IMG/VR virus record: IMGVR_UViG_3300029288_000080 | Span: 32,001 to 96,000 of that record | Strand: one strand, 5' to 3' | Length of the DNA stretch: 64,000 nucleotides | DNA from: a virus | Lineage: Duplodnaviria > Caudoviricetes | Part shown: positions 15,336-53,805 of the stretch, in pieces | How positions within the stretch are numbered: position 1 is the first letter of the stretch | Layout of the letters: each line of letters opens with the position of its first letter | Translations under genes and position numbers: made by a program | The notes under the pieces: generated by a model | The model's input: the letters and a program-made list of their open reading frames with translations, nothing else | What the model was told of the DNA's origin: nothing | Database searches by the model: none

Positions 15336-16028
15336 ATGCCCACTCCCGTCGATATCATGGCGATGGCGCAGGAACTGCGCGATCTCCTGTCACTCCACCT
15401 GGCCCCTGTTTTCGTCGTGGAAGAGAAAATGGAGCGGATCGACGACGCCACCGTGGTCTACACGGTTGACTCAACCGATGAAACTGCTGTGTCGTCGGCG
15501 GTCAAGAAATCCGTGGACATTTTCAAGGTCCAGCGCGAGGACATTGATGTCAAGGCCGAGGGGGTAGCCCAGGATCCCCAGCGGTACCGTGCCACCATTA
15601 CCCTGACGACGGCACCCGAGTCGGTCGCGGGGGAACTGGCGGCCCACAACGCTGCGGTCAAGACCGCCGACACCTCTGGGGTCCTGCCGGTCGCCCTACA
15701 GGTTGGAGAACATCTTTTCGGCCTGGAAGACCAGCAGGGCAAGGTTGTGGTCCTGCAGGACGGGATTGAGGTTGGGTCGGGTGCATCGACCGCTGAGGCT
15801 TTCGGGCTGCTCTTTACCTTGGCGGTCCCGGTGTTTTGGACCGCGTTGTTTCCCACCCGGGAAACACCTGATGATCAAGAGAACCAAATTAATCGTGACC
15901 GAGACATTATTGACGGGATCATGCCGCTCCTGCTGGCCAGCCCAGCGGTCCAGGGTGACGCCGCCGACCTTTTAATTTCGTTTTATGAAGCCGCGACGCT
16001 CCGGAAGGCGCCGCCCCAGGATGCCTAA
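15336..16028 (+). CDS. hypothetical protein (VKTAD motif)
   Basis: ORF downstream of the promoter motif at 15288. Confidence 0.65.
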   Translation: MPTPVDIMAMAQELRDLLSLHLAPVFVVEEKMERIDDATVVYTVDSTDETAVSSAVKKSVDIFKVQREDIDVKAEGVAQDPQRYRATITLTTAPESVAGELAAHNAAVKTADTSGVLPVALQVGEHLFGLEDQQGKVVVLQDGIEVGSGASTAEAFGLLFTLAVPVFWTALFPTRETPDDQENQINRDRDIIDGIMPLLLASPAVQGDAADLLISFYEAATLRKAPPQDA

Positions 16029-16601
16029 ATGTGGACATTTGCCGCCGATTTGAAATCATGGGAGTCGGTGGGAGGGATCGTGGTCGTGGTGCTGTCGGTT
16101 GGAACCTCGATCGTGTCGTTTTTCCTGTCCCGCAGGGCCAACGCGTTAAAGCGTGACGAGGAACAACAGCGCAAAGAAGCGGAGCAACAGGCCGCGGCCC
16201 TGAAACTTTACTGTGACCAACAGGTCGGGGCTTTGGCGGCGTCACTCCAACAGCTCAAGACCGCGGTAGAGTTCGCGGCCCAAGCGTTCCAAGATGTCAA
16301 GCAGCAGCAGTCCGCCGCCGTCCAGGAGATCTGGGCCACGGTCGACACGATGGAAAAGAATTGCACTCGTCACCAGTCCGTGGGGTTTGGCGAGACCATG
16401 CAGTTGCTCCGGCGAGATGTCGACAAGGTGTTGGCTGGTCTGGACCGTACCGACCAGGAAATGCGCCGCTACGTCTCGACTGAAAGTTATCGGCATGACT
16501 TGAAGTTGTGGACCAACAGTTTCAATACCATGAGACAGTCGATCCACGACCTAGCCTTGCTGGTCAGGGGTATCCTGGAGGCCGGTCGCGATGGCAACTG
16601 A
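16029..16601 (+). CDS. membrane-anchored coiled-coil protein
   Basis: N-terminal TM segment then coiled coil. Confidence 0.65.
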   Translation: MWTFAADLKSWESVGGIVVVVLSVGTSIVSFFLSRRANALKRDEEQQRKEAEQQAAALKLYCDQQVGALAASLQQLKTAVEFAAQAFQDVKQQQSAAVQEIWATVDTMEKNCTRHQSVGFGETMQLLRRDVDKVLAGLDRTDQEMRRYVSTESYRHDLKLWTNSFNTMRQSIHDLALLVRGILEAGRDGN

Positions 16602-16890
16602 CGCACGTCAAAACTTTTTAGACACCCTGGATTCAGACCAAGACATCGATCTTGGCGATGAAGTCACGACCTCGGGGATCACGATCGAGGATGACGCGGG
16701 CGAACGGTGCATCACGGCCGTGATCGCCCAGTTCGAGGAGGAAGGTGACCCGGTTCGCGCGGCGTTTCTCGAGGCCATGCGGGCCACGGTCCTGGAAGCC
16801 CGAAATACCGCGATGCTGGCGAGAGCTGCCTGCAAGGTCTTGGCTGAAAAGCGTCAGCGTCGCCAACGGCATGGGTCCCATCCTCGATGA
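16591..16890 (+). CDS. hypothetical protein upstream of terminase
   Basis: Overlaps terminase start (ATGA). Confidence 0.55.
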   Translation: MATDARQNFLDTLDSDQDIDLGDEVTTSGITIEDDAGERCITAVIAQFEEEGDPVRAAFLEAMRATVLEARNTAMLARAACKVLAEKRQRRQRHGSHPR

Positions 16891-19800
16891 AACGACGCCG
16901 TGCTATTGACCTGGACGACCTCACGGTTGCACCAGGCCCTACTGCTAGTCCAGAACCTGTTGCCACGCCGGACCAGGACTCCTTTGACCAGGATGTCGTC
17001 AACGCCTTGCCCACCAAGGTACAGGACGATATTGATTTCGGCGAGGAAATCAGAGACGACTCTGGCCTGCCTGATCCGGTCGCGATGGTCCGGCAGGCCA
17101 TCGCGGCTGACCTGGATTCCTCGGTGTTCTCTGGTCAGCAGTTCCCGGAAGCACCGAACTGCGTGGAATGGTGCCGCGGGCATCAGTGGCTCAACTACGA
17201 GACCGATCTGTTCGCCCGGCAGATCCAAGTGCTGGTGAAGTTTTTCGAGGACGCCTGTTATTTCTGCAGCGACGTGGAATACATCCACGACGCCCGGGTA
17301 GACGACTCACCCGCCAATGCCCTTTCCCACTACAGTTTATTGCAACGTGGTGTCTGCCCCAACTGCAAGCGAAACCGTACCGAAATCCTTACTGACTGGA
17401 TCAAGGACCCACGGTATGGCAAGTTTAACAGGTGGGACCCCTGCGTGGAGCCTCGACCGGTTCCGCCCAACGAGCTGGTTGGCATCTGGGGCCAGCGGTC
17501 AGGGAAATCGATCACAACCGCGTCATTCATCTGGACCTACATCCTCCACCGATTGCTCGCGATGCCGAATCCGTCCAGGTACTACCGACTCGCGACCAAC
17601 GGGGTCCTGCAGGCTTCGTTTGTTTCGCCGACCCGTGGCCAAGGAAAGGAAAACTTGTGGGATCCTTTCCTGAACGCTTTTGACGCTTCCCCGTGGTTCA
17701 AGCAGGTGGTCCAGTATCTCAAGCAGGAGTCCAAGCGGTTGGGGCTCATGCTGTACCACCGGCAGCAGACCTTTTTGGTTTTCCCTGGCAAACGTTTGGC
17801 TGCACATGTCCAGGCAGCAAACAACGTGACGCTCCGTGGGGCTACGAGAGTATTTTGCCTACCTGGCAACACCCTGGTGAACACTGACCATGGGCTGCTT
17901 TCGCTACGACAAGGTGACGACCTACTGGACAGCAAGGTTTACTTGGGTGGTCATCTGCATGATGTGGTAGGCCACACTAAGGTAGGCAAAAAGCAGGTCA
18001 TGCGGTTGGGGTTGCGGTGGGGCTACTCTTTGGAGTCCACCCCCGAGCATCGCGTGCGTGTGCTGAATCCTGACCTTACGGTGGTGTGGAAGCGCGCCGG
18101 AGAAATAAATCTCGGTGATTACGTGGCGGTGGCGTTGGGTGCAAAGTTCCCAGATCATCTTCCCCTGACGTACGTGCCCAAGCGTGCTCCGAAGCGCATT
18201 TTGCGTGCCTACGAGTACATCGACCAGCACAAGGATCTGTTCTACGCCAAGGATTTGCAGGCATACGCGGGTGTGAAGCATATTTATTCCATAACCAAGA
18301 AACTGATGCGACGTGGGGTGATCAGGAAAGAGTTTATTAAGGGCGGGGAAAGAAACTCGGGTTGCCGTTTTATGGCGACCGAGACCTTCAACCTAGCGGA
18401 ACTCAGTCGGGAACTTCTGAATCATAAGTTCAAGGATCGGGATAACGCTGTGTTCCCCAGCGAAATGACCGAGGACATGGGCTACCTACTGGGGTACTAT
18501 GTTTCGGAAGGATCTTTTGCCGAGAACGCTATTGAGTTTACGTTCACCAACACAGACATGCAGGTCATGAACCATTTCGTGGCATGCTACACTCGCGTGT
18601 TCGGGGTTATTCCACGTATCACACAGTTCATGCCGTCCAAGGGCAAGAAAATGGGGTACAAGGCCAGCGTGGCCTATGCGGTCATTAAAGATTTTCTGCG
18701 CTATGTTGGTATGGCCCCCAGTACGGCCCCAACCAAATCTGTGCCGTGGGCTATCTTGCAGGCACCTAGGCGGGTGGTATTGGCATTTTTGTCCGCTTAC
18801 ATTGAGGGAGATGGTTGTTCCAGCGGTGGCGTCATAAGAATGGCGTCCTGCAGTAAAAAGTTGCTACAGCAAATCCAGTTGCTTCTACTGAACTTGAAAA
18901 TAGTCAGTTCTTTAACAAAAAGCCGAAAGCGTAAACCTGGACGTAGCCGCGAGCACAATGCGCTGTACCAGTTGGGGTTAAACAAGTTAGCCTCTACTCA
19001 ACTGGCTAAACATTTGTCTTGCGTGACCAAATGCAAAAACGTGAGCACTGTTTTTTACAATATGCGCCACGACGCGTACAAAATACCATTTCTGCACCCA
19101 TATTTCGGAAACGTTATGTATGGCAAAAGCAGCGTGTACTATTCTGCGTATGTGCGTAGTAGTCTTAATAAGGTGTCTGAAAATCATGCTTTGCGCTGCC
19201 TGGAGATGGAAGACCCTGAACTGTGTGGGCGAGCCAAAGCACTGGTGGACACTGGTGTTGTATGGATTCCAGTGACCGAGATTAAAAATCTTGGGATTAA
19301 GACAGTGTACGACCTTGCTGTGGATAGCGCGGACCATGCGTTTGTTGGTAGTGGCGTTGTGGTCCATAACTCGGCGTTGGACGAACTCGGTCATTTTTCG
19401 TTCGCGAGCAACGGGACCAAGCGGGCGTCGATCCACGACGGCACAGAAGTCTTCACCTCCCTGACCAACTCGCTCCGGACCATCAGGTCGGCGGCGGAAA
19501 GTCGCCGGGATCAACTCGGCGATTACCATGCCCTCGATGGCTACATGGTGAACGTGTCGAGCCCGTTGGACATCGGGGATCCGATTGAGCAGCGGGCTGC
19601 CATTGCCGATAAGTCGTTCCGGATGTACTTCACTAGGTACCCGACCTGGGAAGTTAACCCCAAGGAAAATGAAAACCTGATCCGTGAGGAATTCGCTGGT
19701 TCCCCCGTGACGTTTACGCGAGACTTTGGTGCGCAACCACAGCGGGCCGCCAACCCATTTATCCAGGATGAGAAAATCGTTGATGTCACCACGGTGGAAA

Positions 19801-20621
19801 AGTCACCTCACGTTTTTGACGTGACCCTCTTGACGGAACCGACCGAGACAGATGTGGCACTCCTGCGGGCCAAACTGACCAGGATCGTCAACGACAAGTC
19901 AATGCCCCGTTGTATCACGGTGGACAACGGAGAGCGGAACAACAGTTTCGCCCTGTGTGTCTCGCGCTATTACCCCGAACAGGACGGCATGCTGGTCGAA
20001 GAACTCGTGGAGTTGGCCCCGACTAAAACGGCATCGGTTGACCTGGCCTGGTGTTATAACGAACTGGTGGTCCCGCTGGTTAAGCAACTTCACTGCGTCC
20101 ATGTCGCGTACGACCGCTGGGAATCTGGCTACGCCGTCGCGGACCTCCGGACCAACTACAAGATCGACGCCCAACGGTACAGTCTCAAGTGGAAAGACTT
20201 TGAGATGTTCCGCGACGACCTTTGTGGCATGCGGGTTTTCATGGCCAAGCCGGAGGTTCCGTGGAAACAGGTCTTGACGGTCCCGTTGGCCGACAGAGCC
20301 CAGTGGCCCAGGGCCCATGCCCAAGCTCAACTCCTGACCGTGAGCGAACGAGCTAAGACGCTGTCAAAACCTACCAACGGCAATGACGACCTGTTCCGTA
20401 CGGTCGTGCTGGCCCACCATTTCATTTCCAAGTACCGCGAAGCCTACCGACACAACCAGCGGGTCGAGGGCAACAGGGCTGCTGACCGTCCCGTTGCCCT
20501 GTTCTTCGGTCGGTCAAGCCACGGGAGCGGGGCTGGTGGTGCTGGGCAACGTGGTCGTGGTCCTGGTGGTAGAAATCGCGGGCGCGGTCAGGGTGCCCCC
20601 ATGGGCCCCGGGGCCCTATAA
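16887..20621 (+). CDS. terL: Terminase large subunit with intein
   Basis: Walker A GQRSGKS, LRG, Walker B ALDE, coupling VSSP, nuclease ITVDNG...NDDL; sits upstream of the portal. Confidence 0.88.
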   Translation: MKRRRAIDLDDLTVAPGPTASPEPVATPDQDSFDQDVVNALPTKVQDDIDFGEEIRDDSGLPDPVAMVRQAIAADLDSSVFSGQQFPEAPNCVEWCRGHQWLNYETDLFARQIQVLVKFFEDACYFCSDVEYIHDARVDDSPANALSHYSLLQRGVCPNCKRNRTEILTDWIKDPRYGKFNRWDPCVEPRPVPPNELVGIWGQRSGKSITTASFIWTYILHRLLAMPNPSRYYRLATNGVLQASFVSPTRGQGKENLWDPFLNAFDASPWFKQVVQYLKQESKRLGLMLYHRQQTFLVFPGKRLAAHVQAANNVTLRGATRVFCLPGNTLVNTDHGLLSLRQGDDLLDSKVYLGGHLHDVVGHTKVGKKQVMRLGLRWGYSLESTPEHRVRVLNPDLTVVWKRAGEINLGDYVAVALGAKFPDHLPLTYVPKRAPKRILRAYEYIDQHKDLFYAKDLQAYAGVKHIYSITKKLMRRGVIRKEFIKGGERNSGCRFMATETFNLAELSRELLNHKFKDRDNAVFPSEMTEDMGYLLGYYVSEGSFAENAIEFTFTNTDMQVMNHFVACYTRVFGVIPRITQFMPSKGKKMGYKASVAYAVIKDFLRYVGMAPSTAPTKSVPWAILQAPRRVVLAFLSAYIEGDGCSSGGVIRMASCSKKLLQQIQLLLLNLKIVSSLTKSRKRKPGRSREHNALYQLGLNKLASTQLAKHLSCVTKCKNVSTVFYNMRHDAYKIPFLHPYFGNVMYGKSSVYYSAYVRSSLNKVSENHALRCLEMEDPELCGRAKALVDTGVVWIPVTEIKNLGIKTVYDLAVDSADHAFVGSGVVVHNSALDELGHFSFASNGTKRASIHDGTEVFTSLTNSLRTIRSAAESRRDQLGDYHALDGYMVNVSSPLDIGDPIEQRAAIADKSFRMYFTRYPTWEVNPKENENLIREEFAGSPVTFTRDFGAQPQRAANPFIQDEKIVDVTTVEKSPHVFDVTLLTEPTETDVALLRAKLTRIVNDKSMPRCITVDNGERNNSFALCVSRYYPEQDGMLVEELVELAPTKTASVDLAWCYNELVVPLVKQLHCVHVAYDRWESGYAVADLRTNYKIDAQRYSLKWKDFEMFRDDLCGMRVFMAKPEVPWKQVLTVPLADRAQWPRAHAQAQLLTVSERAKTLSKPTNGNDDLFRTVVLAHHFISKYREAYRHNQRVEGNRAADRPVALFFGRSSHGSGAGGAGQRGRGPGGRNRGRGQGAPMGPGAL
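17856..19370 (+). mobile_element. Intein (505 aa) with LAGLIDADG homing endonuclease
   Basis: Starts CLPGNTLV, block B TPEH, LGYYVSEGS and LSAYIEGDG motifs, ends VYDL...VVHN followed by Ser; lower GC than the extein. Confidence 0.92.
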
Positions 20622-20633: not shown

Positions 20634-21014
20634 ATGTCTATTTATGACGACGTTCGTGCCGCTGCCGAGAAGTCTGGTGTGCAACTTGATCAAGGTGGAG
20701 TCTACCGGGTGGCCGGAACCCTCCGGACCGCCTACGGGGAAACCGCCACGTTCGACACCATCATGCAGGAAGTCCTCAATGCAGCCAACCGGGCCAAGCA
20801 GCAGCCCGTAGCCCCGGTCCAGCAGGTCCAGAGCGACGTGGTGGTTCAGGTGCCCCAGGGGGCCGAAGACGGCAGCCAGATTGCCTACAGCAACCTGGAC
20901 ACCGCGCTGGCCCGGGGGATTTGTCCGCGGTGCAGCAAGGCCCTCAAGAACGTCAAGCTCGCGGACTACACGGAAGCCCGGCATTGCGTGGATTGTCGCA
21001 TTACCCTTTGGTAG
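20634..21014 (+). CDS. Zn-ribbon hypothetical protein
   Basis: CPRC...CVDC at C-terminus; lies between terL and portal. Confidence 0.65.
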   Translation: MSIYDDVRAAAEKSGVQLDQGGVYRVAGTLRTAYGETATFDTIMQEVLNAANRAKQQPVAPVQQVQSDVVVQVPQGAEDGSQIAYSNLDTALARGICPRCSKALKNVKLADYTEARHCVDCRITLW

Positions 21015-21061: not shown

Positions 21062-23335
21062 GTGTTTAGACCGCCCAGATATGACTACACCACGGGGCTA
21101 TACCGATTCCCGCAACAGCGGAAGGTCGGGGTGTACAAGCAGCCCCCGAGGGTGCCGGCGGCTCTGCGCCGTGCCTCCATGGATCCGTACTCAGGGATCT
21201 CTGGTTCATTGGGTGGAAACCGCCAGGTCTACACCCCGATGTACGAGAGAGCCGAAGCCCCCACATTGGTAGAGGATTTCCTCCCGACCGACATCAAGAC
21301 CCAGAACAAGATCTTCCGCAACATCCTCCAGTACGACGCGATCGCAGGGCCCGCCACGGAATATTGGTGTAGCATGGCGTTCTCCCGGAACGTCATCCTG
21401 AGCGACATTGACGACCCGACCGTCATGCACCTCTACGAGGATGCCACGACGGCCTGCGGGATTATTCCTGAGTTTCCGTTGCTGCTCCATGACTACCTGA
21501 CGATCGGGCGGTTTGTCTTTTTCATGCAACCGGACAAGCGCCTGGGCTACTGGGTGGACCACAAGGTCCTGGACCCCGATTTCGTCCGGATCAAGGTGCC
21601 GCCGTTCCGGTCCATGGCCCCGATGATCGACTGGCAGCCCAGTAGTGACGAGCGCGACTGGGCCCTGTCGGACGACCCCCGGGCCATGGAACAGCGGGCC
21701 ACGACCGACCCGATGGTTTTGCGCGCTATGATCGCGGGGGAATCGGTTCCGCTGGACCACGAGGACACGGTTTTCCTTCCTCGCCAGCAGCACGCGACCG
21801 ACCAGTACGGCACCAGTTATCTGTGCCGGATCCTTCCGTTCAAGATCTACGAGAAGGCCATCATGGACGCCAGCATCGCGGGGGCCAGGCGCCGCGCTGG
21901 TCCCGTGTGGCTTGCGACAGTTCCCGAGGACTACACGGCCGGCGAAATCTCCGAGATTATTGACCAGATGTTTGCCGCGGAAGACGACCCCGTGGGCGGC
22001 AAGCTCGCGTTCCGCAATGGCGTGACCCTCACGGAAGTGGGGTCCAAGGATTCCGTTGTGAACATCCGGGACGACTGGGACTTCCTCACGCAAGCGAAGA
22101 TGCGGGCCCTTGGACTTAGTGAAAATATATTGACAGGTGAAACTAACTTCAATACCATGGATAAGATCCTGTCGGCGTTCCTGGAGAAACTCCGGGCGGT
22201 CCGGGAGTTGTTCACCCGCCGGATCCTGACCGACAAGATCTACAAGACCTTGGCGAAACGCCACAAGTTCATCAAGCGGACCCAGGCAGAACTGAGCCAC
22301 CGGATCCGCATTTCCGGCAAGCACCACGACGAGTCCAACCTGTTGCTCCCAACGGTCGAGTGGGACCGCCCGCTCGAGCCCACGGCCGACCGGGACTACT
22401 GGGACATGCTGGTGCAGCTCGAGGAGAAGGGCATCCCGGTCCAGATCCGAAAATGGGCTCAAGCGGCCGGCTACGACTTCAAGGCTTTACTTCAGAACCA
22501 GAAGTCCGAGTTGAGCGACCGCGCCCAGATCTACGGGTTGCGCCAGGCTTTGGACAAGCAGCGGAAGCAATATGGGTTTGACGAGGAAGGTGGCATCGGT
22601 GGTGGTGGGGCTGGATTCGGTGGTGAGGCTCCTGGCGGCCTGGACCTCGGTGGCCCGGAAACAGGTGGCCTTGGTGAACCCGGGGGTGCTGGTGGCGGCT
22701 TGGACCTCGGGGCAGAACCTCTGGGTGGTGGCGGGGCCGGTGGCACCCCTGCGGAGCCCACGGCTGCACCAGCGGCGTCCGAGACCACGGCACCGCCCCC
22801 AGGCGGGCCCGCTGGTGCCGGGGCATCCCTGCTGAACCCTCGGTTCCAGGTGGTGGGGCCGCCCCAGCGGTATCGTCGGGCTTCGGTTTATTCAGCCAAG
22901 CCGTACGATCTGGAAATCGAAATCTCCAAGATCCCGATCTGGGAGAATGACATGACGGTCGCGTCGCTGCCCCGTAGACGCGTCGCCCAAATGGTCGAGG
23001 ATCTGGTTCATCAGGACCCCAACGACCGGCAAGGCCGCGAGTTCTACGCGACGATGAAACGGCGCCATGGATTCACGAACCTCCAGGCCGACGTGATCCA
23101 GTATTGTGCGGCTCGCGTCGGGGTTGTCCAAGCCCCTACCATGGCCGAGGAATCCGTGGATTTCCTCCAGCGGGTCCTGGCTGCTCAGGCCGAAAAGGGC
23201 CTGACCCCTGCGGTGGATCGAGAACTGGATTTCCTGGGCCACGTGGCCCATCGGGAATCCCAGGACATCGGGTTCAAGAACATGACCAGCAGGGCTGTCC
23301 CGGCCGACAAGTTGCTCACTGGCCTGACCGAATAA
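21062..23335 (+). CDS. Portal protein
   Basis: Position after terL, YGTSYL motif, AKMRALG region, Gly/Pro-rich C-terminal linker. Confidence 0.75.
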   Translation: MFRPPRYDYTTGLYRFPQQRKVGVYKQPPRVPAALRRASMDPYSGISGSLGGNRQVYTPMYERAEAPTLVEDFLPTDIKTQNKIFRNILQYDAIAGPATEYWCSMAFSRNVILSDIDDPTVMHLYEDATTACGIIPEFPLLLHDYLTIGRFVFFMQPDKRLGYWVDHKVLDPDFVRIKVPPFRSMAPMIDWQPSSDERDWALSDDPRAMEQRATTDPMVLRAMIAGESVPLDHEDTVFLPRQQHATDQYGTSYLCRILPFKIYEKAIMDASIAGARRRAGPVWLATVPEDYTAGEISEIIDQMFAAEDDPVGGKLAFRNGVTLTEVGSKDSVVNIRDDWDFLTQAKMRALGLSENILTGETNFNTMDKILSAFLEKLRAVRELFTRRILTDKIYKTLAKRHKFIKRTQAELSHRIRISGKHHDESNLLLPTVEWDRPLEPTADRDYWDMLVQLEEKGIPVQIRKWAQAAGYDFKALLQNQKSELSDRAQIYGLRQALDKQRKQYGFDEEGGIGGGGAGFGGEAPGGLDLGGPETGGLGEPGGAGGGLDLGAEPLGGGGAGGTPAEPTAAPAASETTAPPPGGPAGAGASLLNPRFQVVGPPQRYRRASVYSAKPYDLEIEISKIPIWENDMTVASLPRRRVAQMVEDLVHQDPNDRQGREFYATMKRRHGFTNLQADVIQYCAARVGVVQAPTMAEESVDFLQRVLAAQAEKGLTPAVDRELDFLGHVAHRESQDIGFKNMTSRAVPADKLLTGLTE

Positions 23336-23583: not shown

Positions 23584-23625
23584 TCCTGCCCCCTTCAATA
23601 TTTTGTCGTGTCGGAGTACCGTGTA

Positions 23626-26034
23626 ATGCCCACGCCGCAGCGTCGCAGACATTCGGCCACCCTGTACAAGCTGGTTCGCCATCCTGAGTTTGAGCACGAT
23701 TTGCAGAAAATCGGGCACAATAGCGTGTTGACCAAAATGGTGGTCACGTTTATGCAACTGCAGGACGACCCACGTCCCATGGGGTACATTCAGTTGCGTG
23801 GCTTCCGTCAAGTCTGGTACAGGGTGGTCGTGGGGGATTACCGGCTCGTGTATCAAGTGGACGACACCGCCCACACGGTGTACTTGGCGCTTGCGGTGGA
23901 CCGAAAGCAGGTGTACCCACAATTGAAGCGGCGCATCAAAAACGCCATGCTGCAGTACCGAGGACACCGGTACCGTGTCGCCCAGGTGGAGCGTCGGGCT
24001 GCCAAGATCGTGATGTACCACGGGACCTCTTCGGCCCATTTGCCATCGATCCTGAAGCATGGGCTCAGGGCTGATCCCGGCCACCGTCGGTTCACCCTGG
24101 ACAGTAAAAATTTCGACCCCGAGCACGCAACTTACGGGGGCGCCTATCTGACCCCATGGATCCGGGAAGCCCAGAAGTTTGCTTCTGACGCAGTCGACGA
24201 CCAAACTGGTGCGGACCCACTGCTTTGCGTTGTCCAGGTGGAAACCAGGGCCGAGATGATTGTGCCTGACGAGGACCATTTTATCTCGCTGACCGACCCA
24301 TTCGTTTTGGAAATCCAGTGGGCCCTTGGACCCGACGCCACCATGCTGGATCTGCTCGTGGCGGTTCGAGACGGCACTGTAGACCTGGCTGATTGGGTAG
24401 CCCCGTGGATCGCAGCGCTGAAGAGTGATGAGGGTACCCGCAACATCGTGGTGGATCCTGAAGTATTATTGCGTCACAAAACTGAGATGGTCGGGTTGCT
24501 CGTCCTGATGGTGCAGTACCGGGTGGCCCAGTGGCCCACCCAAGATCCTGCTCGGCAGAAAATCCGTGCTGACCTGGGGGTACCGGATAAGGCCACGGCC
24601 CGTCAGCAGTTTGTTGAGGCGTTGGACCGTTTTTCCCGAAAAATCCAGAGGCTCACGGACCCCCAAGGGGCCAAGAGCAAAAGCGTCAGGTCACTCCAGG
24701 ATATTGGATTCCGCGGGGCCAACCGGATCCTTGGGATTTTGAAGTACAGGCTGGACTGGGATACCCTGGCTGGCGTCGTGGTCATGGGGGAACAGAATCC
24801 CAACGTCTTGGCCGCCGTCAAGGCCCTGTACCCGACCAAACCCTCGATCCAGTGGCAGGACCGCACAGGACAGGTCATTTTCCAGAAGCCCGCGGCCAAG
24901 GCTGCGGCCCGCCTGGCCTACCCTGTTGCTGCCCCCAACTGGGCAATGGAAAAACGTCGTATCACCGCAGCGATCCAGCGGCTCCGTGGAGTCGTCGAGG
25001 CTTGTGCTCCGTTGTTGCGAGATAGCCCCCAGGCAGAAAACATCCGTGATTATCTGGGAAACAACGCGACCGTACACGCCGAGCAAATCGCCGGGGTCCT
25101 GGGCTATTTGGAGAAGCCTACCCGCGGGCTGCTGGAGCGACTGGACCTCGGGGGTACTTTCCACCAGATCCAGGACCATTTGGATCTGTACCGCGAAAAA
25201 ATGGACGTGGTGGACCACGTCGTCCAGGACTACCAAAAAGAGTTGCAGCGTAGTGGTGCCGACGATTACTCTCAGGAAGACCTGGACCACCGGTACAACT
25301 TCACCCAGGACGTTAAACCGATCCTCATGGCCCTGGAGATGGTCCCGGGGATTCTGCAGGATTTTCGTAGATTTATCCAGTATGTCGACACTGATGCTCG
25401 CTACTTTGACCACGCCAACAAGGTGGCCCCGATGGGCGGTCGCCACGATGTAGTCCCGCCTGGTGTTGCTCCGGTCGAGATCATGTGGCACGCCACCACG
25501 GCGTATCGAGAAATCATGTCCGGTGGATTCAAAACCAAAGATGAACTGGGTGGCAAGGCCGCAGGGTTAGGTGGTGCGGTGGAAGGCATTAGTTTCACCG
25601 GGAGCCAGGAAATCGCCGAGGGGATCGCCGCGGCCCTGGTGGACCTGGTGAGGTTGCTCCGGGGTGACCTGACCCGCGAGGCTCTGGAGCAGTACGGGGC
25701 ATCCTTGGGGCTGGACGCCGCTACGGTCACCACGGCCTACCATAATGCTGTAGGTTCCAAAGCCAACCAGAATCCACTGGATGCGTTCAACTTCTACCAG
25801 GCGTTTCAACACATCTTGAGCCAGGCTGGGTATCAAGGACTTCGGTACGACCCGCTATTTTTCGGGATTGACCCAGCGGTCATGGCTCAGGTGGATCCCA
25901 AGAACATCGGGGTCATTGAAGCCAAGATTGACACGACCCAGGCCCATCGGTATCTCCGGTCCATGGAGGAATGGCGGGTGCCGAAATCCGCCATCCTGTC
26001 ATTCGGGCCCGTGGGCTCCCAGGTGCAACCGTGA
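23626..26034 (+). CDS. Polyvalent protein: RelE/ParE-like + ART-like + helical + ART-like
   Basis: RelE-like DPRP.G...YRVVVGDYRLVYQVDD; ART YHGTS...ILKHGL...AYLT; second WHAT...GFKT...ISFT...EEWRV. Confidence 0.7.
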   Translation: MPTPQRRRHSATLYKLVRHPEFEHDLQKIGHNSVLTKMVVTFMQLQDDPRPMGYIQLRGFRQVWYRVVVGDYRLVYQVDDTAHTVYLALAVDRKQVYPQLKRRIKNAMLQYRGHRYRVAQVERRAAKIVMYHGTSSAHLPSILKHGLRADPGHRRFTLDSKNFDPEHATYGGAYLTPWIREAQKFASDAVDDQTGADPLLCVVQVETRAEMIVPDEDHFISLTDPFVLEIQWALGPDATMLDLLVAVRDGTVDLADWVAPWIAALKSDEGTRNIVVDPEVLLRHKTEMVGLLVLMVQYRVAQWPTQDPARQKIRADLGVPDKATARQQFVEALDRFSRKIQRLTDPQGAKSKSVRSLQDIGFRGANRILGILKYRLDWDTLAGVVVMGEQNPNVLAAVKALYPTKPSIQWQDRTGQVIFQKPAAKAAARLAYPVAAPNWAMEKRRITAAIQRLRGVVEACAPLLRDSPQAENIRDYLGNNATVHAEQIAGVLGYLEKPTRGLLERLDLGGTFHQIQDHLDLYREKMDVVDHVVQDYQKELQRSGADDYSQEDLDHRYNFTQDVKPILMALEMVPGILQDFRRFIQYVDTDARYFDHANKVAPMGGRHDVVPPGVAPVEIMWHATTAYREIMSGGFKTKDELGGKAAGLGGAVEGISFTGSQEIAEGIAAALVDLVRLLRGDLTREALEQYGASLGLDAATVTTAYHNAVGSKANQNPLDAFNFYQAFQHILSQAGYQGLRYDPLFFGIDPAVMAQVDPKNIGVIEAKIDTTQAHRYLRSMEEWRVPKSAILSFGPVGSQVQP

Positions 26035-31646: not shown

Positions 31647-31648
31647 TC

Positions 31649-41354: not shown

Positions 41355-41774
41355 ATGAATCTCGTTGATCTCAACCGTGCCGTCGTCGCTGCTGCCCGAC
41401 AGGCCAAGCCGGTCGGTAGGGTTTTGTTCGCTGGGCTCACCAGGATCACGGCCGTCAGGACCGCCGACTGGAAATACCGTCAGTATACCAATCCGTCAGC
41501 CCCGTCGCCCGCCACGGCCCTGGCGTTGCGGCCAGGCGGCGTCATCACGGTGTCGTTGCAGAATCACCCGGCCACCGCGTATATTGACTCGGTCCGCAGG
41601 ATCCAGCATAATGGCCGCCCCACTTTCATTAAACTGGTCCTCATGATCGACACGTCCAAGTTGGCCGTGACGCTTGACCATGAAACCAAGTGTTCCTGCC
41701 TGTACTGCGGAACAGAACCCCGGGATAATTCGCCGTCGTGCAGATCATGCGGCGCGCCCTTGCCGAACTGCTGA
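41355..41774 (+). CDS. Zn-ribbon protein (VRTAD)
   Basis: CLYCG...CRSCGAP at C-terminus. Confidence 0.6.
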   Translation: MNLVDLNRAVVAAARQAKPVGRVLFAGLTRITAVRTADWKYRQYTNPSAPSPATALALRPGGVITVSLQNHPATAYIDSVRRIQHNGRPTFIKLVLMIDTSKLAVTLDHETKCSCLYCGTEPRDNSPSCRSCGAPLPNC

Positions 41775-46854: not shown

Positions 46855-49800
46855 ATGTCGGTTAATCCTGACAACAGAATCCCCGAGCCTCCATTCACCA
46901 CCGCAGAAGCCGGGATCATCGGTGACACCATCGGGATTATCTGGGATCAAGTGGATTTCTCGGTGGACCAGTTTCTGGCCGGGCTCCAGGTAGAGTTGGA
47001 ACATGGGGCCCGGGATCCCGAGACCGACGTGACCCAGGACGACCCCTACGAAACCGGTAAAATCGCTTGGGCCCACCTGAAAGAAAAGCCTGACTACTAC
47101 GAGGGATTAGCCGCGATGGAAAAAGCCAACGAACCTGCTGCCCAGGCTGCCCCCAAGGACGAAGGCGCTATCCCGATGTCGCCCAACAACATGGTGGCCC
47201 CTATGGATTCGACTACCCAGGCGAAGTCCGCTGAAGTCGAGAAGTCAGCGGTGGTGAAGCGTTGCCGCCCCACTGATTGCCCCGATAAACCTGACGATGA
47301 AAAGCGCTGGTGCCTCTTGACCCACGACGAAAAGAAAGCCTTGAAGTGTGCCCCGACCCGTGAGGAAGCCGTCAAGCAGGAAAAGAACGTCAACTTCTTC
47401 AAGCACCAAGGGACCACCATGGAACCTCGCTACACCATCCTGACCGCCGCGATGATCCTGCGGGAAGCTGCCCAGGGCCGTGACGTTGACGACATGGATC
47501 TCTCGTGGGACTCAGGGGCCATCGGGACCATCACGAAGGAACTGGATTCCGCCGCGATCCGATGGGTCCAGTCGGATGCGTTTCCCAAGGACGACGAAAC
47601 CTTCGAGATGCTGGATCCCGTCACGGATGACCGTGCACTCCCGGCCAAGCCCGACGAGTATTACCCGGTGTTCATCAAGTTCTGCCAGCGGTACGGCTTG
47701 GACGTCGAGGATCTGGAAAAGCGTTGGGGTGGCCGGTCCATTGACCATCGGCTTACCGCCGTGGCCCGCGACTTTGCCCACAAGATCGTGCCACAGTGCA
47801 CCGAACAGTCCAGGGTTTGCCAGGATGTTGGCGGTGCCATGGCGTTCACGTTCGTCTCTCGCATCCCTGGCGTCATCTACATCGCGGCCGAGACGGAAGG
47901 CAAGCAGCAGTTCAACTTCAAGCCTCAGTTAACGAGGCAATACCGCGACGACAAGGCCGCCCCGACCAAGCAGGCTGGGGCCAAGCGTGCTGCCCTGGTT
48001 AAGCGAAATCGTGACCTCCGGGTTGCCGTCCTGGTCAACGTCAAGTCCATGTGGAACCCCAAGTTCGCCGAGGCGTTGCAGCGGAGCCTCACGAACCTGG
48101 GGGACGAGCCCGGCCAGCACCCGCTTGACGAGAATACCCTAGAGGCCCAGATCCCCGACACCGAAGTGGCCCGGGAAGCCCTGAACCTGTACTACACGGT
48201 CTGGGCCGCCACGATGGAAACGCTCTACAACTTCGGCAAGAAGGTCGGGAACGAAAATGTCCTGAACGTCACGACCGCTAGGTTGTCAGCCGCGATCACG
48301 GACCAAGCCTTCGGGGCCAGCAAGTTGATGCCCGAGCCTCCCGCCCAGAATCTCCAGGCGGAGTACAAGCAGTTCATCCAGATGAACAAGTTGACCAAGG
48401 GGTTCGACGTCAACCAGATTGTCCAATGGGCCACCGGGACCGCAGGCAAGACCTACAAGCAATGGGAAAAGGCCCTGACGGACCGGTGGAAGCAGGAGAA
48501 GCCCGCCGATAAGTCCACGGCAACTCCGCCGCCGGTTCCTGGTGGGGCAACCCCTCCTCCGGTTCCCCAGGACGCCCGCAAGCAGAAGCAGGGTGCTGTT
48601 GCGTCAGTGGACACCGATGAAATGGCTTGGGTCAAGGCTGACCTCGATGCCATCCAGCGTGACATCGACACTTTGGGTTTGGAAGGTGCCGCCCGTAAGA
48701 ATCTCGATATCATGACCGCTGCGTTGTCCGAAAATCAGGGTGGCATCAACGAGTACGTGAACAGTTTTTCTCTTGACGGTTTCACGGAAGCGTTTGCCCG
48801 CTGTGGCATGCAAGTTTCCTCCAAGACCAAGGTCAAGACCGCCGCGACCACCCGGGTATATTTTGACGACCTTGGACTTGTTGCGGTCATCAAGGTGACG
48901 CCGGAATCTCAAGCCATCATGGATGAGATGACCCCGCACAGTAAATACGCACTCCTCCTGGGTGACGAGGAACAATTTAATGCGCTCAAAGAAGTAGAAG
49001 CGGTAGTGCGGAAGCAGAAACTGTCGACTCCGCCCCGTGGAGCCAAGGTGCAGCGCAAGGCCATGGACTTGGACGAAACCCGCGCTCTTAAAAATACCAT
49101 GAAAACCCGCATGGCCGACGAGCCCGCAGGTCTGGGCGGCCCGCTGGACCGTGGTGACTTTCACTACATGACTATGGACGACCTTCGGAAAGTCCCGCTC
49201 GACCCAATGGCCGGGGACATTGGTGGCGTCAGTACCGTGACGAATCAGTTGCCCCAAGGTGTCGACGATCCTGACGTTGACCTGGAGATTGTTGACCTGC
49301 TCCTGGGCCTTGGGGCCCAGCATGACCCTGACGATCAGTATACCCTCATGACCCCGGTGGGTCCCCTGTACTGCCGGGTGGGTCACGATGCCCTGTACTG
49401 CCGGTTCCGCGACATCGAGGAAGCCCTTGGGGTTGTGGATTGTGACGCCCATTCGGGCGAGTGGAACCAGTATTACTTTGACGACGAGTCCCCCGAGAAG
49501 TTCGTGGGGCGACTGCGCAAGTTGCTCAACAAGGTCATGGAGCCCCCTGTTCCCATGGTCCAGGTCACGAGTCCCGGGATGGCCGACATGTTGGGGTTCG
49601 ACCAGCCTGGTCCTCTGGACCCTGATCTTGGTGGCCTACCGGATGGCCTGGAAGACTTTTCACAGGTCAGGGGCGCTGGATTCCTCGGGGTCAAGCCCAA
49701 GACCAAGAAGCTCCAGAAGGCCGAGGCCATGGCCGACAAGGCCCTGGTACAGATGCTCCAGGAGTTTGGGGCCCAGCAGAACCTTGACGCTATGTATGAC

Positions 49801-50880
49801 TGGGAACTTGACACCCCGGTGGGCAAACTGGGCTGCACGGTGCGTAATGGTGAGTTGTTCTGCCGGTTCGACAACCCCGAGGCCGCGGCCCTCGTGACCT
49901 CGTGTAATCCGTATTCCGGAAAATGGAATTTCCATTACACCGGCAAGGACCCCATGGTTGCGGTCGTGGAAGCTCGACAGAAAATTTCACGCCTTATGGA
50001 TCAGGTGGGTCAGCAGCGCGAGACCAGCAAGATCCGCAAGTTTGTTGACAAGTGGAAGGGAGCCAAGGTTAAGGTTGCTATTCCGCTGGATCCCGACCAT
50101 GCCTGGGAGCAAAAGATCCAGCAGTCGAGCAAGTCTGGCATGAAGTTTTTCAGCAATGACGACGCCACCTACGTGGTTACGCCCAGGGGCACCTCGTGGA
50201 TCGTTGCGGTCCCGGGTGAACAACTCGAGGAACCCATCCAGATTTCGGCTGTTCCAGAGGACTCGGTCGCGTTGTCCAGCAACCCTGTGCTGGATCGGTT
50301 GCTCACGCGATTTCCCCGGTGGTGCAGGCGCCAAGGGGTTGGCGGTCGCGCAGCGTCGGTCAAGCCCACGGGCATCCTGCACTCCGCTTCCTTGGGGCTC
50401 CAGATTGGGTTCCGTGGGGGTGCAGCCGTGCTGTCCCGGGATGACGGTGCCACCTGGGAGCAGGCCAGCAAGGTCGATTGGGACCAGGTTCAACTTGATT
50501 GCACAGCCCACCGGTGTGAGCAATACCAAGAATGGCCCCAGGAGGTTCGCGCGACGTTCCAGAAACTAAAAACGCGCGTAGGGGCTAGGTTAGAATGGTA
50601 CGAGCCAGGCGAGGGGTGGTATAGCAACGACCGAGGTGCGGAACCAGACGACGTAGATCTACACGACGACGCCCTTATGCCAGCGGCCGAGGCGTTGGCC
50701 GAGTATACACTGCTGGGTGGACTACCTGATGACCCTGCGGGTCAGAGCCGTAAAAAGCACGCTCACGACCGCTACCAACGCCAACTTGACCTTCTCGCAG
50801 AAAACTTTGGTGTGGACCTGCACCGTCGTCATGACCTCCACCAGCGTATCCGCGGGCTGGCCGATCGGTTGACCGCGTGA
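46855..50880 (+). CDS. Large modular protein with N-terminal DUF5661-like domain and a duplicated internal domain
   Basis: GLQVELEH...KIAWAHLKEKPDYYEGL; repeat TPVG.L.C.V...CRF...C..SG.WN; K/R-x-A linkers. Confidence 0.7.
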   Translation: MSVNPDNRIPEPPFTTAEAGIIGDTIGIIWDQVDFSVDQFLAGLQVELEHGARDPETDVTQDDPYETGKIAWAHLKEKPDYYEGLAAMEKANEPAAQAAPKDEGAIPMSPNNMVAPMDSTTQAKSAEVEKSAVVKRCRPTDCPDKPDDEKRWCLLTHDEKKALKCAPTREEAVKQEKNVNFFKHQGTTMEPRYTILTAAMILREAAQGRDVDDMDLSWDSGAIGTITKELDSAAIRWVQSDAFPKDDETFEMLDPVTDDRALPAKPDEYYPVFIKFCQRYGLDVEDLEKRWGGRSIDHRLTAVARDFAHKIVPQCTEQSRVCQDVGGAMAFTFVSRIPGVIYIAAETEGKQQFNFKPQLTRQYRDDKAAPTKQAGAKRAALVKRNRDLRVAVLVNVKSMWNPKFAEALQRSLTNLGDEPGQHPLDENTLEAQIPDTEVAREALNLYYTVWAATMETLYNFGKKVGNENVLNVTTARLSAAITDQAFGASKLMPEPPAQNLQAEYKQFIQMNKLTKGFDVNQIVQWATGTAGKTYKQWEKALTDRWKQEKPADKSTATPPPVPGGATPPPVPQDARKQKQGAVASVDTDEMAWVKADLDAIQRDIDTLGLEGAARKNLDIMTAALSENQGGINEYVNSFSLDGFTEAFARCGMQVSSKTKVKTAATTRVYFDDLGLVAVIKVTPESQAIMDEMTPHSKYALLLGDEEQFNALKEVEAVVRKQKLSTPPRGAKVQRKAMDLDETRALKNTMKTRMADEPAGLGGPLDRGDFHYMTMDDLRKVPLDPMAGDIGGVSTVTNQLPQGVDDPDVDLEIVDLLLGLGAQHDPDDQYTLMTPVGPLYCRVGHDALYCRFRDIEEALGVVDCDAHSGEWNQYYFDDESPEKFVGRLRKLLNKVMEPPVPMVQVTSPGMADMLGFDQPGPLDPDLGGLPDGLEDFSQVRGAGFLGVKPKTKKLQKAEAMADKALVQMLQEFGAQQNLDAMYDWELDTPVGKLGCTVRNGELFCRFDNPEAAALVTSCNPYSGKWNFHYTGKDPMVAVVEARQKISRLMDQVGQQRETSKIRKFVDKWKGAKVKVAIPLDPDHAWEQKIQQSSKSGMKFFSNDDATYVVTPRGTSWIVAVPGEQLEEPIQISAVPEDSVALSSNPVLDRLLTRFPRWCRRQGVGGRAASVKPTGILHSASLGLQIGFRGGAAVLSRDDGATWEQASKVDWDQVQLDCTAHRCEQYQEWPQEVRATFQKLKTRVGARLEWYEPGEGWYSNDRGAEPDDVDLHDDALMPAAEALAEYTLLGGLPDDPAGQSRKKHAHDRYQRQLDLLAENFGVDLHRRHDLHQRIRGLADRLTA

Positions 50881-51059: not shown

Positions 51060-51910
51060 TGCAATCCAAGTCTATGCTTCGAGGAACCCGCAGGGTTGCC
51101 GCGGCCCCCGAGATGCCCATTGAGTTTTTTAACGCGTACGTGGAAGCGGCGCTCTGGAGCACCACCGACAACTCCGACGAGCAAGGTGGTGAACCCCTGG
51201 ACCAGAACTACTCGGTTGACGACATTGCCGACGAGTCGTTGGCCGCGATGGAGCAGGATTGCCAGGCGTTCTGGCAGGCCAACCACGAGGACCTTGGGCA
51301 GTATCGTGACCCGCAGTACAGCGCCGCTGAACTTGGTGGCCATGATTTCTGGCTGACTCGGAATGGCCACGGCGCTGGTTTCTGGGATGGCGATTTGCCC
51401 GATGACGTAGGCAAGCGCCTGACCGAGGCCGCCAAGGCATTTGGAGAGGACGACCTGTATGTCGGGGACGACGGCAAGATCTACAACTCGGCTACGCCGC
51501 ACCAGTACAACGAAGCCCTTGACCAGCAGCCCGAGTGGGTCAGGGGTGCTGGAGTGCGCGGGGATAAGGCAGTAAACCGCTCTAAGAATAAGCGTATCGT
51601 TCAGACTATGGACGACATTAAAACAGCGTTGGTCCAGATTGGCTACACTCATCGGCAACAGGGTATCGCGGACCAGTACCAGCAAGAAGTGTCCGACGTT
51701 GACTCTGAGGTCAAACGGTTAACCACGGTGTTCAAGCAGCATGGACTGGTGGGGTTCCATAATCGGGAGGATGACCCTGCGGTCACGACTTGGCATTTCG
51801 ACAGTGCTGGTGCCCAGCGTGGATTTGGTGCCAAGGTCATGGTTTATAGCGATCAACCCAACCTGGTCCTGGTCAACGTCATGGATTCAAATTCGGTGAG
51901 GTCCTGGTAG
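51059..51910 (+). CDS. hypothetical protein (FWLTRNGHGAGFWD domain)
   Basis: Motif I recall from phage hypothetical proteins; LRGTRRVA leader. Confidence 0.65.
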   Translation: MQSKSMLRGTRRVAAAPEMPIEFFNAYVEAALWSTTDNSDEQGGEPLDQNYSVDDIADESLAAMEQDCQAFWQANHEDLGQYRDPQYSAAELGGHDFWLTRNGHGAGFWDGDLPDDVGKRLTEAAKAFGEDDLYVGDDGKIYNSATPHQYNEALDQQPEWVRGAGVRGDKAVNRSKNKRIVQTMDDIKTALVQIGYTHRQQGIADQYQQEVSDVDSEVKRLTTVFKQHGLVGFHNREDDPAVTTWHFDSAGAQRGFGAKVMVYSDQPNLVLVNVMDSNSVRSW

Positions 51911-52339: not shown

Positions 52340-52666
52340 ATGTCCAGGTTCAGGATTGCCCAGCCCGACCCCGACGCGATGCCGCTCCTGCAGGTGGGCG
52401 ACTCAGTCGGGACCCCAGAGGGTCAAGGGATTGTCGTCAATATCGCGCTGCAGATCGCCGACTACCAAGGGGACGTCCAGATCGATCCCCCGGCTATCCT
52501 GATCCAGTTGGAATCAGGGCAAACCCAGCAGTTTTGCCTGTGCGAACTGGACTTTGGGTCGGAAGAAATCAACGAAACGGTCGGGAAGGAATTTTCCCGC
52601 CTTTGGCCCCCGATCGACATGGATGTCCCGGATGCCGCTGTTGTCCTGGCGGCCCGGAAGGAATAG
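52340..52666 (+). CDS. hypothetical protein (MSRFRIA leader)
   Basis: ORF in operon. Confidence 0.6.
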   Translation: MSRFRIAQPDPDAMPLLQVGDSVGTPEGQGIVVNIALQIADYQGDVQIDPPAILIQLESGQTQQFCLCELDFGSEEINETVGKEFSRLWPPIDMDVPDAAVVLAARKE

Positions 52667-52668
52667 CG

Positions 52669-53805
52669 ATGCTCCCTGCAGTTGGAACCAAAATCAAGAC
52701 GCTCGAGGGTGTTGACCTCGGTGGTGGTGCTGTGGTCCAGCGGGTGGGTCCTGGTAAGACCACGCTCCTGTTGACCGACCAAAACCGTATCGTGACCTAC
52801 CGGGTGCCCGACGATATCGCGTGGGCCCCAGACGACCAACTTGACGCCACTGGGCTGGACGACACCGTCGTGGACGAGTCAGCTCAGGATTTCGGCCCTG
52901 CTACCAAACGGATCACCCGGCTCCCCAAGCAATGGGGGCCCGCAGACCCGAACCATTTTTCCCCGATGTCCGACGTGACCTGGCGACCCGAACAGTGGGA
53001 CCAGCGGTATCTCCGGCGCTGGTACAGCAAGGAAATCGAAATGCCCAAACAATCGGTTGACTATCTTCGTGGAACCCGCCGGACCGCTATCAAGGACACC
53101 ACCGCGGCCGATTCTCACGCAACCATGGACCTTGTTCAATGGGACCCTGAAGGTGCTGACCAGAAGCCTGCTGAACTGGAAGCTTTGGCCCTACAGTTCC
53201 GCCAGGACCTCGATGCCCTCACGATCGAGTGGCATCCCCAGTTCGGCCGGGGCAACAATGTCAGCCCCTCAGAGTTCATGCTGGTCTGGGGCCCTGACCA
53301 AGAGTTGGCTCCGGGTCAACAAGATGAACTCTGGCGCTTTATGGTCTCGGCCAAGATGTACGATGTCCGCGAGTATCAGGCGTGGAAACGACTGCGTTCC
53401 AGTGACCAGTGGCTCCGGAGTGAGTTGCCCAGGGCAGCCAGGACCGCCGACACCCTGGTGCAGCACCCTGGCCCCATGGAGATCGACGTCGAGGACTGGT
53501 TCGACGACATTGATCCTTGGGTAGACTGGCTGGCCCGCTTTGACTCGTTTGACCGTGCAGTCCAAGTGGCCCACAAGGTCGCGGCAGAAGAGGGAGCAGT
53601 GCTGGCCCGGGATGTCTTCCAGTACGCCCAGAAGGTCGTGCTGGACGCCAGGGACCGCTACCAGGAGGGCACTCTGGACCTGGACCCTGGCCAACTCGTC
53701 AGGCTCAACCAGTACCTTGCGGAGATGCACCTGGACCCCGTGGAAGGCCCTGACGAGACCCGTGGCCAGGACCTTGCTGACATCAGGCAGGTGTGGGGCA
53801 GGTGA
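52669..53805 (+). CDS. modular hypothetical protein (internal start at 53041)
   Basis: RBS AAGGA at both starts; LRGTRRTA and ARTAD motifs. Confidence 0.6.
   Translation: MLPAVGTKIKTLEGVDLGGGAVVQRVGPGKTTLLLTDQNRIVTYRVPDDIAWAPDDQLDATGLDDTVVDESAQDFGPATKRITRLPKQWGPADPNHFSPMSDVTWRPEQWDQRYLRRWYSKEIEMPKQSVDYLRGTRRTAIKDTTAADSHATMDLVQWDPEGADQKPAELEALALQFRQDLDALTIEWHPQFGRGNNVSPSEFMLVWGPDQELAPGQQDELWRFMVSAKMYDVREYQAWKRLRSSDQWLRSELPRAARTADTLVQHPGPMEIDVEDWFDDIDPWVDWLARFDSFDRAVQVAHKVAAEEGAVLARDVFQYAQKVVLDARDRYQEGTLDLDPGQLVRLNQYLAEMHLDPVEGPDETRGQDLADIRQVWGR

Follow-up and report, generated by a model that had tools for sequence, protein, structure and literature searches.

Recurrent hydrophobic-[Lys/Arg]-Thr-Ala motifs in the head module of an uncultured phage: a candidate prohead-protease cleavage site

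What does it mean that a tailed phage repeats one short peptide, Lys or Arg followed by Thr and Ala ([KR]TA), in many otherwise unrelated proteins encoded around its capsid gene? The question is raised by a 64,000-nucleotide stretch of DNA (the window), which comprises positions 32001-96000 of one 177,603-bp IMG/VR virus record (IMGVR_UViG_3300029288_000080). The whole record has 58% G+C and a completeness rating of about 70%, and its + strand holds nearly all genes; among cultured phages, the closest are jumbo phages, for example PaBG, Lu11, and phages of Erwinia and Rhizobium, at only 27-38% identity. A first-pass annotation of the window proposed that the protease encoded at 36710 cuts head proteins after a general K/R-x-A code. 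Here, a narrower motif, hydrophobic-[KR]-[TVS]-A, is considered the probable site of this prohead protease, with Ala at P1, and we place the probability of this reading at roughly 0.6. In the motifs below, ↓ marks the predicted bond, and sites and tags with window coordinates lie on the + strand.

The head module spans approximately 15.3 to 55.4 kb of the window. All 14 sites listed by the first-pass annotation are present, in frame, in + strand open reading frames (ORFs); they start at 15657, 26952, 27582, 28113, 31398 (previously given as 31378), 32245, 35379, 35424, 38035, 38603, 39082, 41454, 48832, and 53437. Enrichment was assessed in head-module ORFs (15.3-55.4 kb) with a minimum length of 90 amino acids (aa), 36 in number and 12,958 aa in total, with whole-protein shuffles, 20-aa local shuffles, and permuted tripeptides serving as backgrounds and controls. 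In these ORFs, [KR]TA occurs 25 times, compared with 9.1 expected from whole-protein shuffles and 9.5 from local shuffles (z 4.9), and the five permuted forms of the tripeptide all match expectation. For [VI][KR]TA the count is 12 vs 1.0 expected, and for [VI][KR]TA[DEA] it is 9 vs 0.28. All k-mers were also ranked so that the pattern was not picked post hoc. This unbiased ranking puts VKTA first for over-representation among the head module's tetrapeptides, with seven copies in seven proteins and 0.28 expected (Poisson p 2e-8, or 0.0036 after Bonferroni correction over 160,000 tetrapeptides), and KTA ranks 4th among 8000 tripeptides. The comparison that the first-pass annotation had proposed, of 15-55 kb with 0-15 kb and the remaining genome, places the excess in the head module only: none was found in the 0-15 kb and 55-64 kb flanks of the window, and in the remaining genome (41,593 aa of the 177.6-kb record) [VI][KR]TA is at expectation (3 vs 3.1), which gives a Fisher odds ratio of 12.9 (p 7e-6) for head module versus remaining genome.

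With regard to the form of the motif, the broad [KR]xA pattern is too loose, being just 1.3-1.4-fold over expectation in the head module (212 vs 159); T at its middle position accounts for this excess first, then S, V, A, and L. What the data support is hydrophobic-[KR]-[T>V,S]-A with D/E/A/S/Q as the next residue. The observations fit a processing code tied to the head module, as seen in its confinement, conservation, placement at boundaries, and presence on the capsid N-arm, but not the K/R-x-A breadth originally given to it. Composition and low complexity were rejected as sources of the excess by the three backgrounds described above. A DNA-level motif was rejected as well: synonymous codons differ between sites, and the DNA pattern GTNAARACNGC is found mostly on the + strand (10 vs 3 copies, seven of the 10 in the head module), from which it follows that the motif is a protein-level signal.

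Is the motif kept in related phages? Capsid-protein searches yielded about 20 loci with 34-57% identity, and two closer phages were found as well: L022 (protease 92% identical, other head proteins 58-87%) and L023 (protease 69%, capsid protein 67%). The motif excess is about 3-fold in both, with 16 [KR]TA vs 5.3 expected in L022 and 14 vs 5.2 in L023, where [KR]VA (16 vs 6.0) and [KR][TV]A[DEASQG] (20 vs 4.7) are also in excess; the T4-type pattern [LIVA]xE is at expectation in both phages. Among the 11 [KR]TA sites in stretches alignable between the window and L022, seven are exact, two are [KR][VS]A variants (VKTA↓D replaced by ARVA↓E in flanks 21% identical, and QKTA↓E by RSA↓E), and two are lost. 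Several of the retained sites lie in flanks of only 0.2-0.6 identity, and Thr and Val are swapped in both directions between the two phages (ARVA↓Q/ARTA↓Q, KKVA/HKTA, TKVA/TKTA). In addition, the excess in L022 and L023 includes new, non-orthologous places.

The sites fall where homology blocks start or stop, some of them behind leaders of 4-96 residues. At 38588-38614, the short basic leader MKNPRVRTA↓AEQ corresponds to MPRQIRTA↓AEK in L022 and to an 88-aa leader ending in YASRTA↓AKK in L023, and the conserved body begins after the Ala in all three phages. VKTA↓D at 39082-39093 closes the 96-aa leader of the protein at 38806-39771, the conserved body of which starts about 30 aa beyond the site; L022 has ARVA↓E at the orthologous site, in flanks of 0.21 identity, and the L023 protein starts with MTTKNRTA↓EPG. 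For each of these two bodies, the R/K-T-A keeps its place at the end of leaders that are 4, 12, and 88 aa long in one case and 8 and 96 aa long in the other. In the 41352 protein, homology to relatives sets in directly after VRTA↓D (41454-41465). Other leaders are rich in Arg: MANQNRRNAFRRLA↓DAPP (39788-39829), which has Leu at P2 (RRLA↓DAPP in the window vs QNRRA↓DAPP in L022), MIRRNRRVA↓SPEF (41788-41814), and MLRGTRRVA↓AAPE (51074-51100). The last resembles an internal LRGTRRTA↓I (RTA at 53080-53088), whose L023 ortholog is HGTKRVA↓E.

Within longer chains, VKTA↓A (32245-32256) lies between two modules of the 295-aa protein that starts at 31867 and is IKTA↓A in L022. The 1341-aa multi-module (beads-on-a-string) protein (46855-50880) contains VKTA↓A at 48832-48843 and EKSA↓V at 47242-47250, where EKSA↓VVKRCRP matches IKTA↓IVKSCRA of L023; the 1180-aa L023 protein consists of repeated modules with RTA↓E, KAA↓Q, or KTA↓E ahead of each. 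In the 505-aa protein (34791-36308), a Pro/Ala linker (35379-35435) holds two sites, VKTA↓E, which is IKTAEPVV in L022, and IKTA↓E, which is lost there. This protein also contains DLG in tandem (GDLGDLGDLG...) and, ahead of a conserved C-terminal domain, a long low-complexity stretch rich in K, D, and E; DLG is the top-ranked tripeptide of the head module because of the tandem repeat. LRTA↓Y in a 126-aa protein (20721-20732) follows a tag-like VYRVAG, and VYR[VI]AGTLRTAYGE is kept in L022 with differing flanks. ARTA↓D in a 502-aa ORF (53437-53448) is not alignable in L023, VKTA↓D at 15657-15668 (230-aa protein, upstream of the terminase) and the 41788 leader are known from their sequence only, and the portal has a weaker N-terminal candidate of variant form, LRRA↓S (21164-21175; LRRA↓V in L022). 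The seven VKTA copies occur in seven unrelated proteins with unrelated flanks.

The placement at joints extends to polyvalent effector proteins, in which at least two unrelated effector domains share a chain encoded among virion genes. Two such chains are encoded in the window, an 808-aa protein (23608-26034; RelE-like and PARP-like, that is, ART-like) and the protein at 26031-28052 (673-aa form). As the first-pass annotation had claimed for domain boundaries, the latter reads GNAT, ParB-like, VKTA, ART-like (PARP-like), QKTA, NUDIX. VKTA↓Q (26952-26963) occupies residues 308-311, and ParB homologues stop at residues 301-305; the ParB-like assignment rests on matches that co-occur with MuF and ParB Pfam families. 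QKTA↓E (27582-27593) occupies residues 518-521, directly ahead of NUDIX, and NUDIX homologues begin at residues 519-526. The proposed mapping of motifs onto structure models succeeded for this second joint, as the AlphaFold2 (AF2) model of the 673-aa protein has a confident NUDIX fold from about residue 521, right behind QKTA. At the same position L022 has RSA↓E, with SRTA↓G six residues upstream.

NUDIX homologues were also drawn from a library of 1.8 billion representatives (n=44). Twelve of the 44 have [KR]xA with its Ala exactly five residues before DEG (KTA five times, plus RTA, RLA, RSA, and others), and their upstream partners are unrelated. In the homologue P0057, a sequence of the form YRLA↓E, the end of a tag described below, stands at the exact place of the window's QKTA↓E before NUDIX. 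Several unrelated polyvalent proteins have an acidic linker and KTA after ParB, e.g., VVIDQDEQVKTA↓S. The 3858-aa protein P0070 (L025:10001-21577) contains nine [KR]TA vs 1.5 expected, located before ART and NUDIX and after ParB. Its host contig is unrelated (52.7 kb, 45% G+C); a tie of P0070 to the window's protease clade was rejected, as no protease or capsid homologue was found in its 31.6-kb locus (10 kb on each side).

The effector domains are reshuffled between window positions 23608-28052 and L022:5554-12209. NUDIX comes after ART in the window and after GNAT in L022, where GNAT is duplicated and four effector genes in a row encode proteins with an N-terminal tag. With respect to other potential processing enzymes, neither an HExxH metallopeptidase motif in any head-module ORF nor a peptidase Pfam match in the head-module proteins was found in the window; one L022 polyvalent protein carries a zincin-like HELGH domain.

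How would such proteins reach the capsid? A second element is a hairpin-like tag of about 12 residues, I-[KR]-[VYHF]-x-G-x-x-Y-[KRV]-[LIV]-A-[DEA], often with M-x3-P-P-K ahead; the tag peptide is written MNRIIRHAGHLYREVKTA. Its regex matches 84 places in the window and in related phages, compared with 4.9 expected, at the N-termini, in the interiors, and at the C-termini of dozens of unrelated proteins (including those of L003, L012, L013, L015, and L021). Its end, Y-[KR]-L-A followed by D/E/A, has the same shape as V-K-T-A-D. [KR]xA follows 32 of 61 tags, compared with 16.5 in shuffles. Ala is found at the third position after the tag Tyr in 38 of 61 tags when more protein follows and in none of the five C-terminal tags (Fisher p 0.011), which fits an Ala that would be needed only where a downstream part must be cut off. 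As in a capsid-targeting sequence, a short peptide is thus found on unrelated proteins, ending at the predicted protease site.

The tag is carried by five proteins of the window and three elsewhere in the genome, and most motif sites of the window stand alone with no tag beside them. An internal tag, LQYRGHRYRVA↓Q (23950-23982), lies between the RelE-like and the first ART-like domain of the 808-aa protein. Its L022 counterpart is N-terminal on an ART protein (MRSTLQYRGRRYRAV) and is also found after RelE on another body; this RelE and tag module heads the body that contains HELGH. N-terminal tags are LRYKGAVYQAV with a spacer and TRTA↓A in a 148-aa protein (28065-28124), IRHAGHLYRE with VKTA↓D in a small acidic protein (start 31356; 31368-31409), and the paralogous IRHHGHIYKK...QVLA↓D in a small protein (start 36384; 36396-36446), at whose genomic place L023 has MSSKILNLVRFRGSVYKK. 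The N-module (aa 25-114) of the 295-aa protein described above, which VKTA follows, exists in L001 as a separate 121-aa protein with an N-terminal tag. Outside the window and far from the head module, a tagged ART-like protein, MAKMIRFNGAVYREA↓AKTVMYHGT, is encoded on the - strand (genome 26489-27541), as is a second tagged protein, MSKTIKYAGALYRMC, from about genome position 26480 downward; a C-terminal tag, VVRYQGRIFIRR, directly followed by a stop, lies at genome position 126904. The frame of the GNAT protein is open for 60 nucleotides (nt) upstream of its called GTG start (25971-26034), overlapping the end of the 808-aa gene, and the upstream stretch HPVIRARGLPG resembles a decayed tag, the L022 ortholog having an intact MIYHGHQYRAA.

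Which enzyme could act on these sites? The candidate is the head-maturation (prohead) protease encoded at 36710-37486 on the + strand (258 aa), a function claimed by the first-pass annotation and borne out by a PHROG head maturation protease match (PHROG 18299, E 5e-49) and by similarity to jumbo-phage prohead proteases, including 38% identity to the PaBG 'prohead core protein protease' (E 2e-42). GKPVHQDH (His) and GHSMG (Ser) are invariant among eight relatives. The gene lies between those of the portal (21062) and of the scaffold-like protein (37495) and capsid protein (44309), and this order is the same in L022, L023, and L001. The protease is conserved with its neighbours and is 57-92% identical in relatives with capsid proteins 40-67% identical. 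An invariant G-R-x-A (GRPA, GRTA, GRVA, GRAA, or GRIA) is present at 37052-37063 (residues 115-118) in eight of eight proteases, in a stretch of very low AF2 confidence. Known maturation proteases inactivate themselves by self-cleavage, and by analogy this G-R-x-A may be a self-cleavage site.

The classic substrates of a prohead protease bear the motif, since it is present on the capsid N-arm and in the scaffold-like protein. The major capsid protein (MCP; 44309-45424; PHROG 2522, E 2e-38) has an N-arm site, V69-R-Q-A72↓S73 (44513-44524), and the same column reads VRQA↓S in a 97% identical homologue, VRTA↓S at 84%, KKVA↓A at 67%, QRVT↓A at 65%, and QRVA↓K at 58% identity. A Glu-ending site in the capsid protein was rejected, as the conserved GAFE becomes GPFQ in relatives and [LIVA]xE is not enriched. 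The Arg/Ala-rich protein at 37495-38514 (+ strand) is a putative scaffold, judging from its position beside the protease and its composition. It has [KR]TA sites at 38035, 38068, and 38410, among which ARTA↓M and QRTA↓A are kept in L022, and it ends in the tag PPVIRVKGVRYERID (38476-38511, a regex match). In L023, the corresponding protein contains seven [KR][TV]A sites along with two tags.

From these sequences, we infer cleavage, the enzyme, the exact bond, and the binding partner of the tag as follows. Head-bound proteins would carry one of two elements, the hairpin-like tag or a short leader rich in Arg (examples are MLRGTRRVA↓, MIRRNRRVA↓, and MANQNRRNAFRRLA↓). Because the scaffold-like protein ends in the same tag, cargo may enter via the scaffold's contact inside the procapsid, which it would mimic. 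After shell assembly, the protease would take the 72-residue N-arm off the capsid protein, break down the scaffold, trim the leaders from the cargo, and split the polyvalent effector domains (GNAT/ParB, ART, and NUDIX). The cut would most likely fall after Ala, with a hydrophobic residue at P4, a basic residue at P3, a beta-branched or small residue at P2, and Ala at P1. A wider and more tentative proposal, possible rather than probable, is that an uncultured lineage of large phages (PaBG-like protease clade) uses a two-part cargo grammar, in which a scaffold-mimicking hairpin tag is combined with an assemblin-like cut after Ala (hydrophobic-[KR]-x-A↓).

Several observations weigh against a prohead-protease site. 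The phage is known from metagenomes alone, and cleavage is a prediction from sequence. No match of the protease to Pfam S77 (PF03420) was obtained at E <= 10, none was found in the whole genome, and the PaBG homologue gave the same result; its AF2 model, built from eight sequences, has a predicted local distance difference test (pLDDT) score of 52, and Foldseek and VIA returned no significant match. Sequence and profile searches against the PDB gave nothing usable, so the His and Ser are not mappable on a solved structure, and the match of a human cytomegalovirus (HCMV) protease to the model (E 1.3) is not significant, providing no fold or sequence link to assemblin. Since it is without a Pfam S77, PDB, or fold match, the protease appears to belong to a divergent PaBG-like clade and not to the gp21 family. 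The tagged leader of the 36384 protein has no [KR]TA. Conversely, some [KR]TA copies (LKTAF at 39301; TKTA of the terminase) sit where the protein is conserved and probably folded, and the tripeptide by itself is therefore insufficient. In the 673-aa protein, AF2 folded GNAT and NUDIX only; the ParB/ART part was unmodelled, probably owing to a poor multi-domain alignment, and VKTA at 26952 could not be placed. No VKTA excess was found in the distant relatives L001-L021, where Y-[KR]-L-A sits at the tag end in more distant members, and distant relatives with capsid proteins 40-57% identical have no [KR]xA at the N-arm column; the exact code thus seems limited to a clade with capsid proteins at least about 58% identical. 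Finally, Ala at P1 would be a departure from the Glu of the characterised T4/phiKZ-type prohead proteases (PMC10052503).

A functional motif might also be something other than the scissile site of the prohead protease, namely, a docking or targeting element (for instance, the conserved tag end, serving in loading and recognized by scaffold, portal, or capsid protein) or a site cut by another host or phage enzyme. [KR]-L-A is physically part of the tag in relatives and the tag end replaces KTA in P0057; a zincin-like HELGH domain is present in one L022 polyvalent protein, and embedded metallopeptidases have been proposed as processors of polyvalent proteins (PMC5512222). However, the majority of the window's sites are without a tag, Ala is missing from C-terminal tags, the motif occurs on the capsid N-arm and in scaffold-like proteins, and HExxH was not found in the window's module. 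For a docking element, the exact placement at the starts of conserved bodies, behind leaders of very different lengths, would also be unexpected, and we regard this explanation as unlikely.

A different bond within the motif could also be cut, after the basic residue (V-K↓T-A), such that mature chains would start with Thr-Ala. The HK97 protease cuts after Lys, the basic residue is the sole charged and strictly kept position of the motif, and homology of the bodies cannot separate a cut two residues earlier. Nevertheless, the four positions N-terminal of the after-Ala bond are conserved and conservation is weak beyond them, which is the usual P4-P1 pattern; P2 accepts T, V, S, and L, whereas Ala hardly varies, and the tag Ala is lost only where nothing follows. 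A cut after Lys/Arg is therefore judged improbable. Chance, composition, or shared descent of duplicated linkers, with a functionless motif, has in its favour that KTA alone fails correction over 8000 tripeptides (p 2e-5 x 8000) and that the 35379/35424 pair represents a local duplication. On the other hand, VKTA survives correction, the permuted controls are at expectation, the excess stands against local shuffles, the seven VKTA copies lie in seven unrelated proteins with unrelated flanks, and the excess recurs in L022 and L023, also at non-orthologous places, which leaves this explanation hardly credible.

Some other genes of the module complete the picture. The large terminase (16887-20621; 1244 aa) contains an intein with a LAGLIDADG domain, which its 735-aa L022 counterpart (L022:374-2581; 82-87% identical) does not have. 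It is followed by the portal (21062-23335). A TnpB gene (32992-34335) splits two genes that adjoin in L022 with a 44-nt gap (L022:14331-14991), suggesting that it was inserted recently in the phage of the window. Two mutually paralogous structural proteins start at 42450 and 43463, and several small proteins are also encoded among the head-module genes.

If the motif marks the cleavage site, it predicts which proteins this uncultured lineage packages and where their mature ends lie, and it would tell which domains (ART, NUDIX, GNAT, ParB, and RelE) become separate injected effectors. It would also mean that prohead proteases outside the T4/phiKZ group switched P1 from Glu to Ala, and it would offer an alternative to self-processing of polyvalent proteins by their own metallopeptidase domains. 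If the two-part grammar is true, the KTA joints found in very large polyvalent proteins from other phages would imply that injected effector polyproteins are diced by prohead proteases and not by embedded metallopeptidases, and cut-site codes would co-evolve with protease clades. The tag and site together could serve as a portable handle for bringing foreign proteins into capsids.

Among known systems, T4 uses capsid-targeting sequences and gp21 to process IPI-III, Alt, and the gp23 N-terminus, with cuts after Glu ([L/I]-x-E). As in T4, unrelated proteins from inside the head have short N-terminal leaders that stop at the predicted site of the protease, one site would both trim the capsid N-terminus and destroy the scaffold, and the protease gene lies between portal and scaffold/capsid genes. 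In contrast to T4, Ala preceded by Lys/Arg takes the place of Glu, the window's tag is hairpin-like (I-[KR]-V-x-G-x-x-Y) and also occurs internally and C-terminally, and the protease is not detectably Pfam S77. In herpesviruses, the scaffold C-terminus binds the capsid protein and is freed by the maturation protease assemblin (PMC4498786, PMC8537868). In the window, the scaffold-like protein likewise ends in a tag that cargo also carries. Assemblin-type herpesvirus serine proteases cut between Ala and Ser (V/L-x-A↓S; release site Y-x-x-A↓S), and these sites resemble Y-[KR]-L-A↓ and V-K-T-A↓. The use of the tag for cargo loading is not known to have a herpesvirus counterpart.

In phiKZ and SPN3US, the proteases gp175 and gp245, respectively, process ejection proteins at A-x-E, as was proven by mass spectrometry (PMC10052503, PMC5694885). 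There, too, many head proteins, including injected ones, share one short motif, and propeptides may hold several sites. The differences are that P1 is Glu and the cuts are proven in those phages and predicted here, and that the window's motif also parts enzyme domains inside polyvalent proteins. In 2017, Iyer et al. described such proteins from phages as well as conjugative elements and proposed embedded zincin metallopeptidases as their processors; a prohead-protease code at the joints was not described (PMC5512222). The window's proteins resemble theirs in being multi-domain injected effectors encoded among head genes (ParB-like, ART, GNAT, NUDIX, and RelE-like), with domains shuffled between relatives, and differ in having, instead of HExxH, a head-module-wide motif at their joints.

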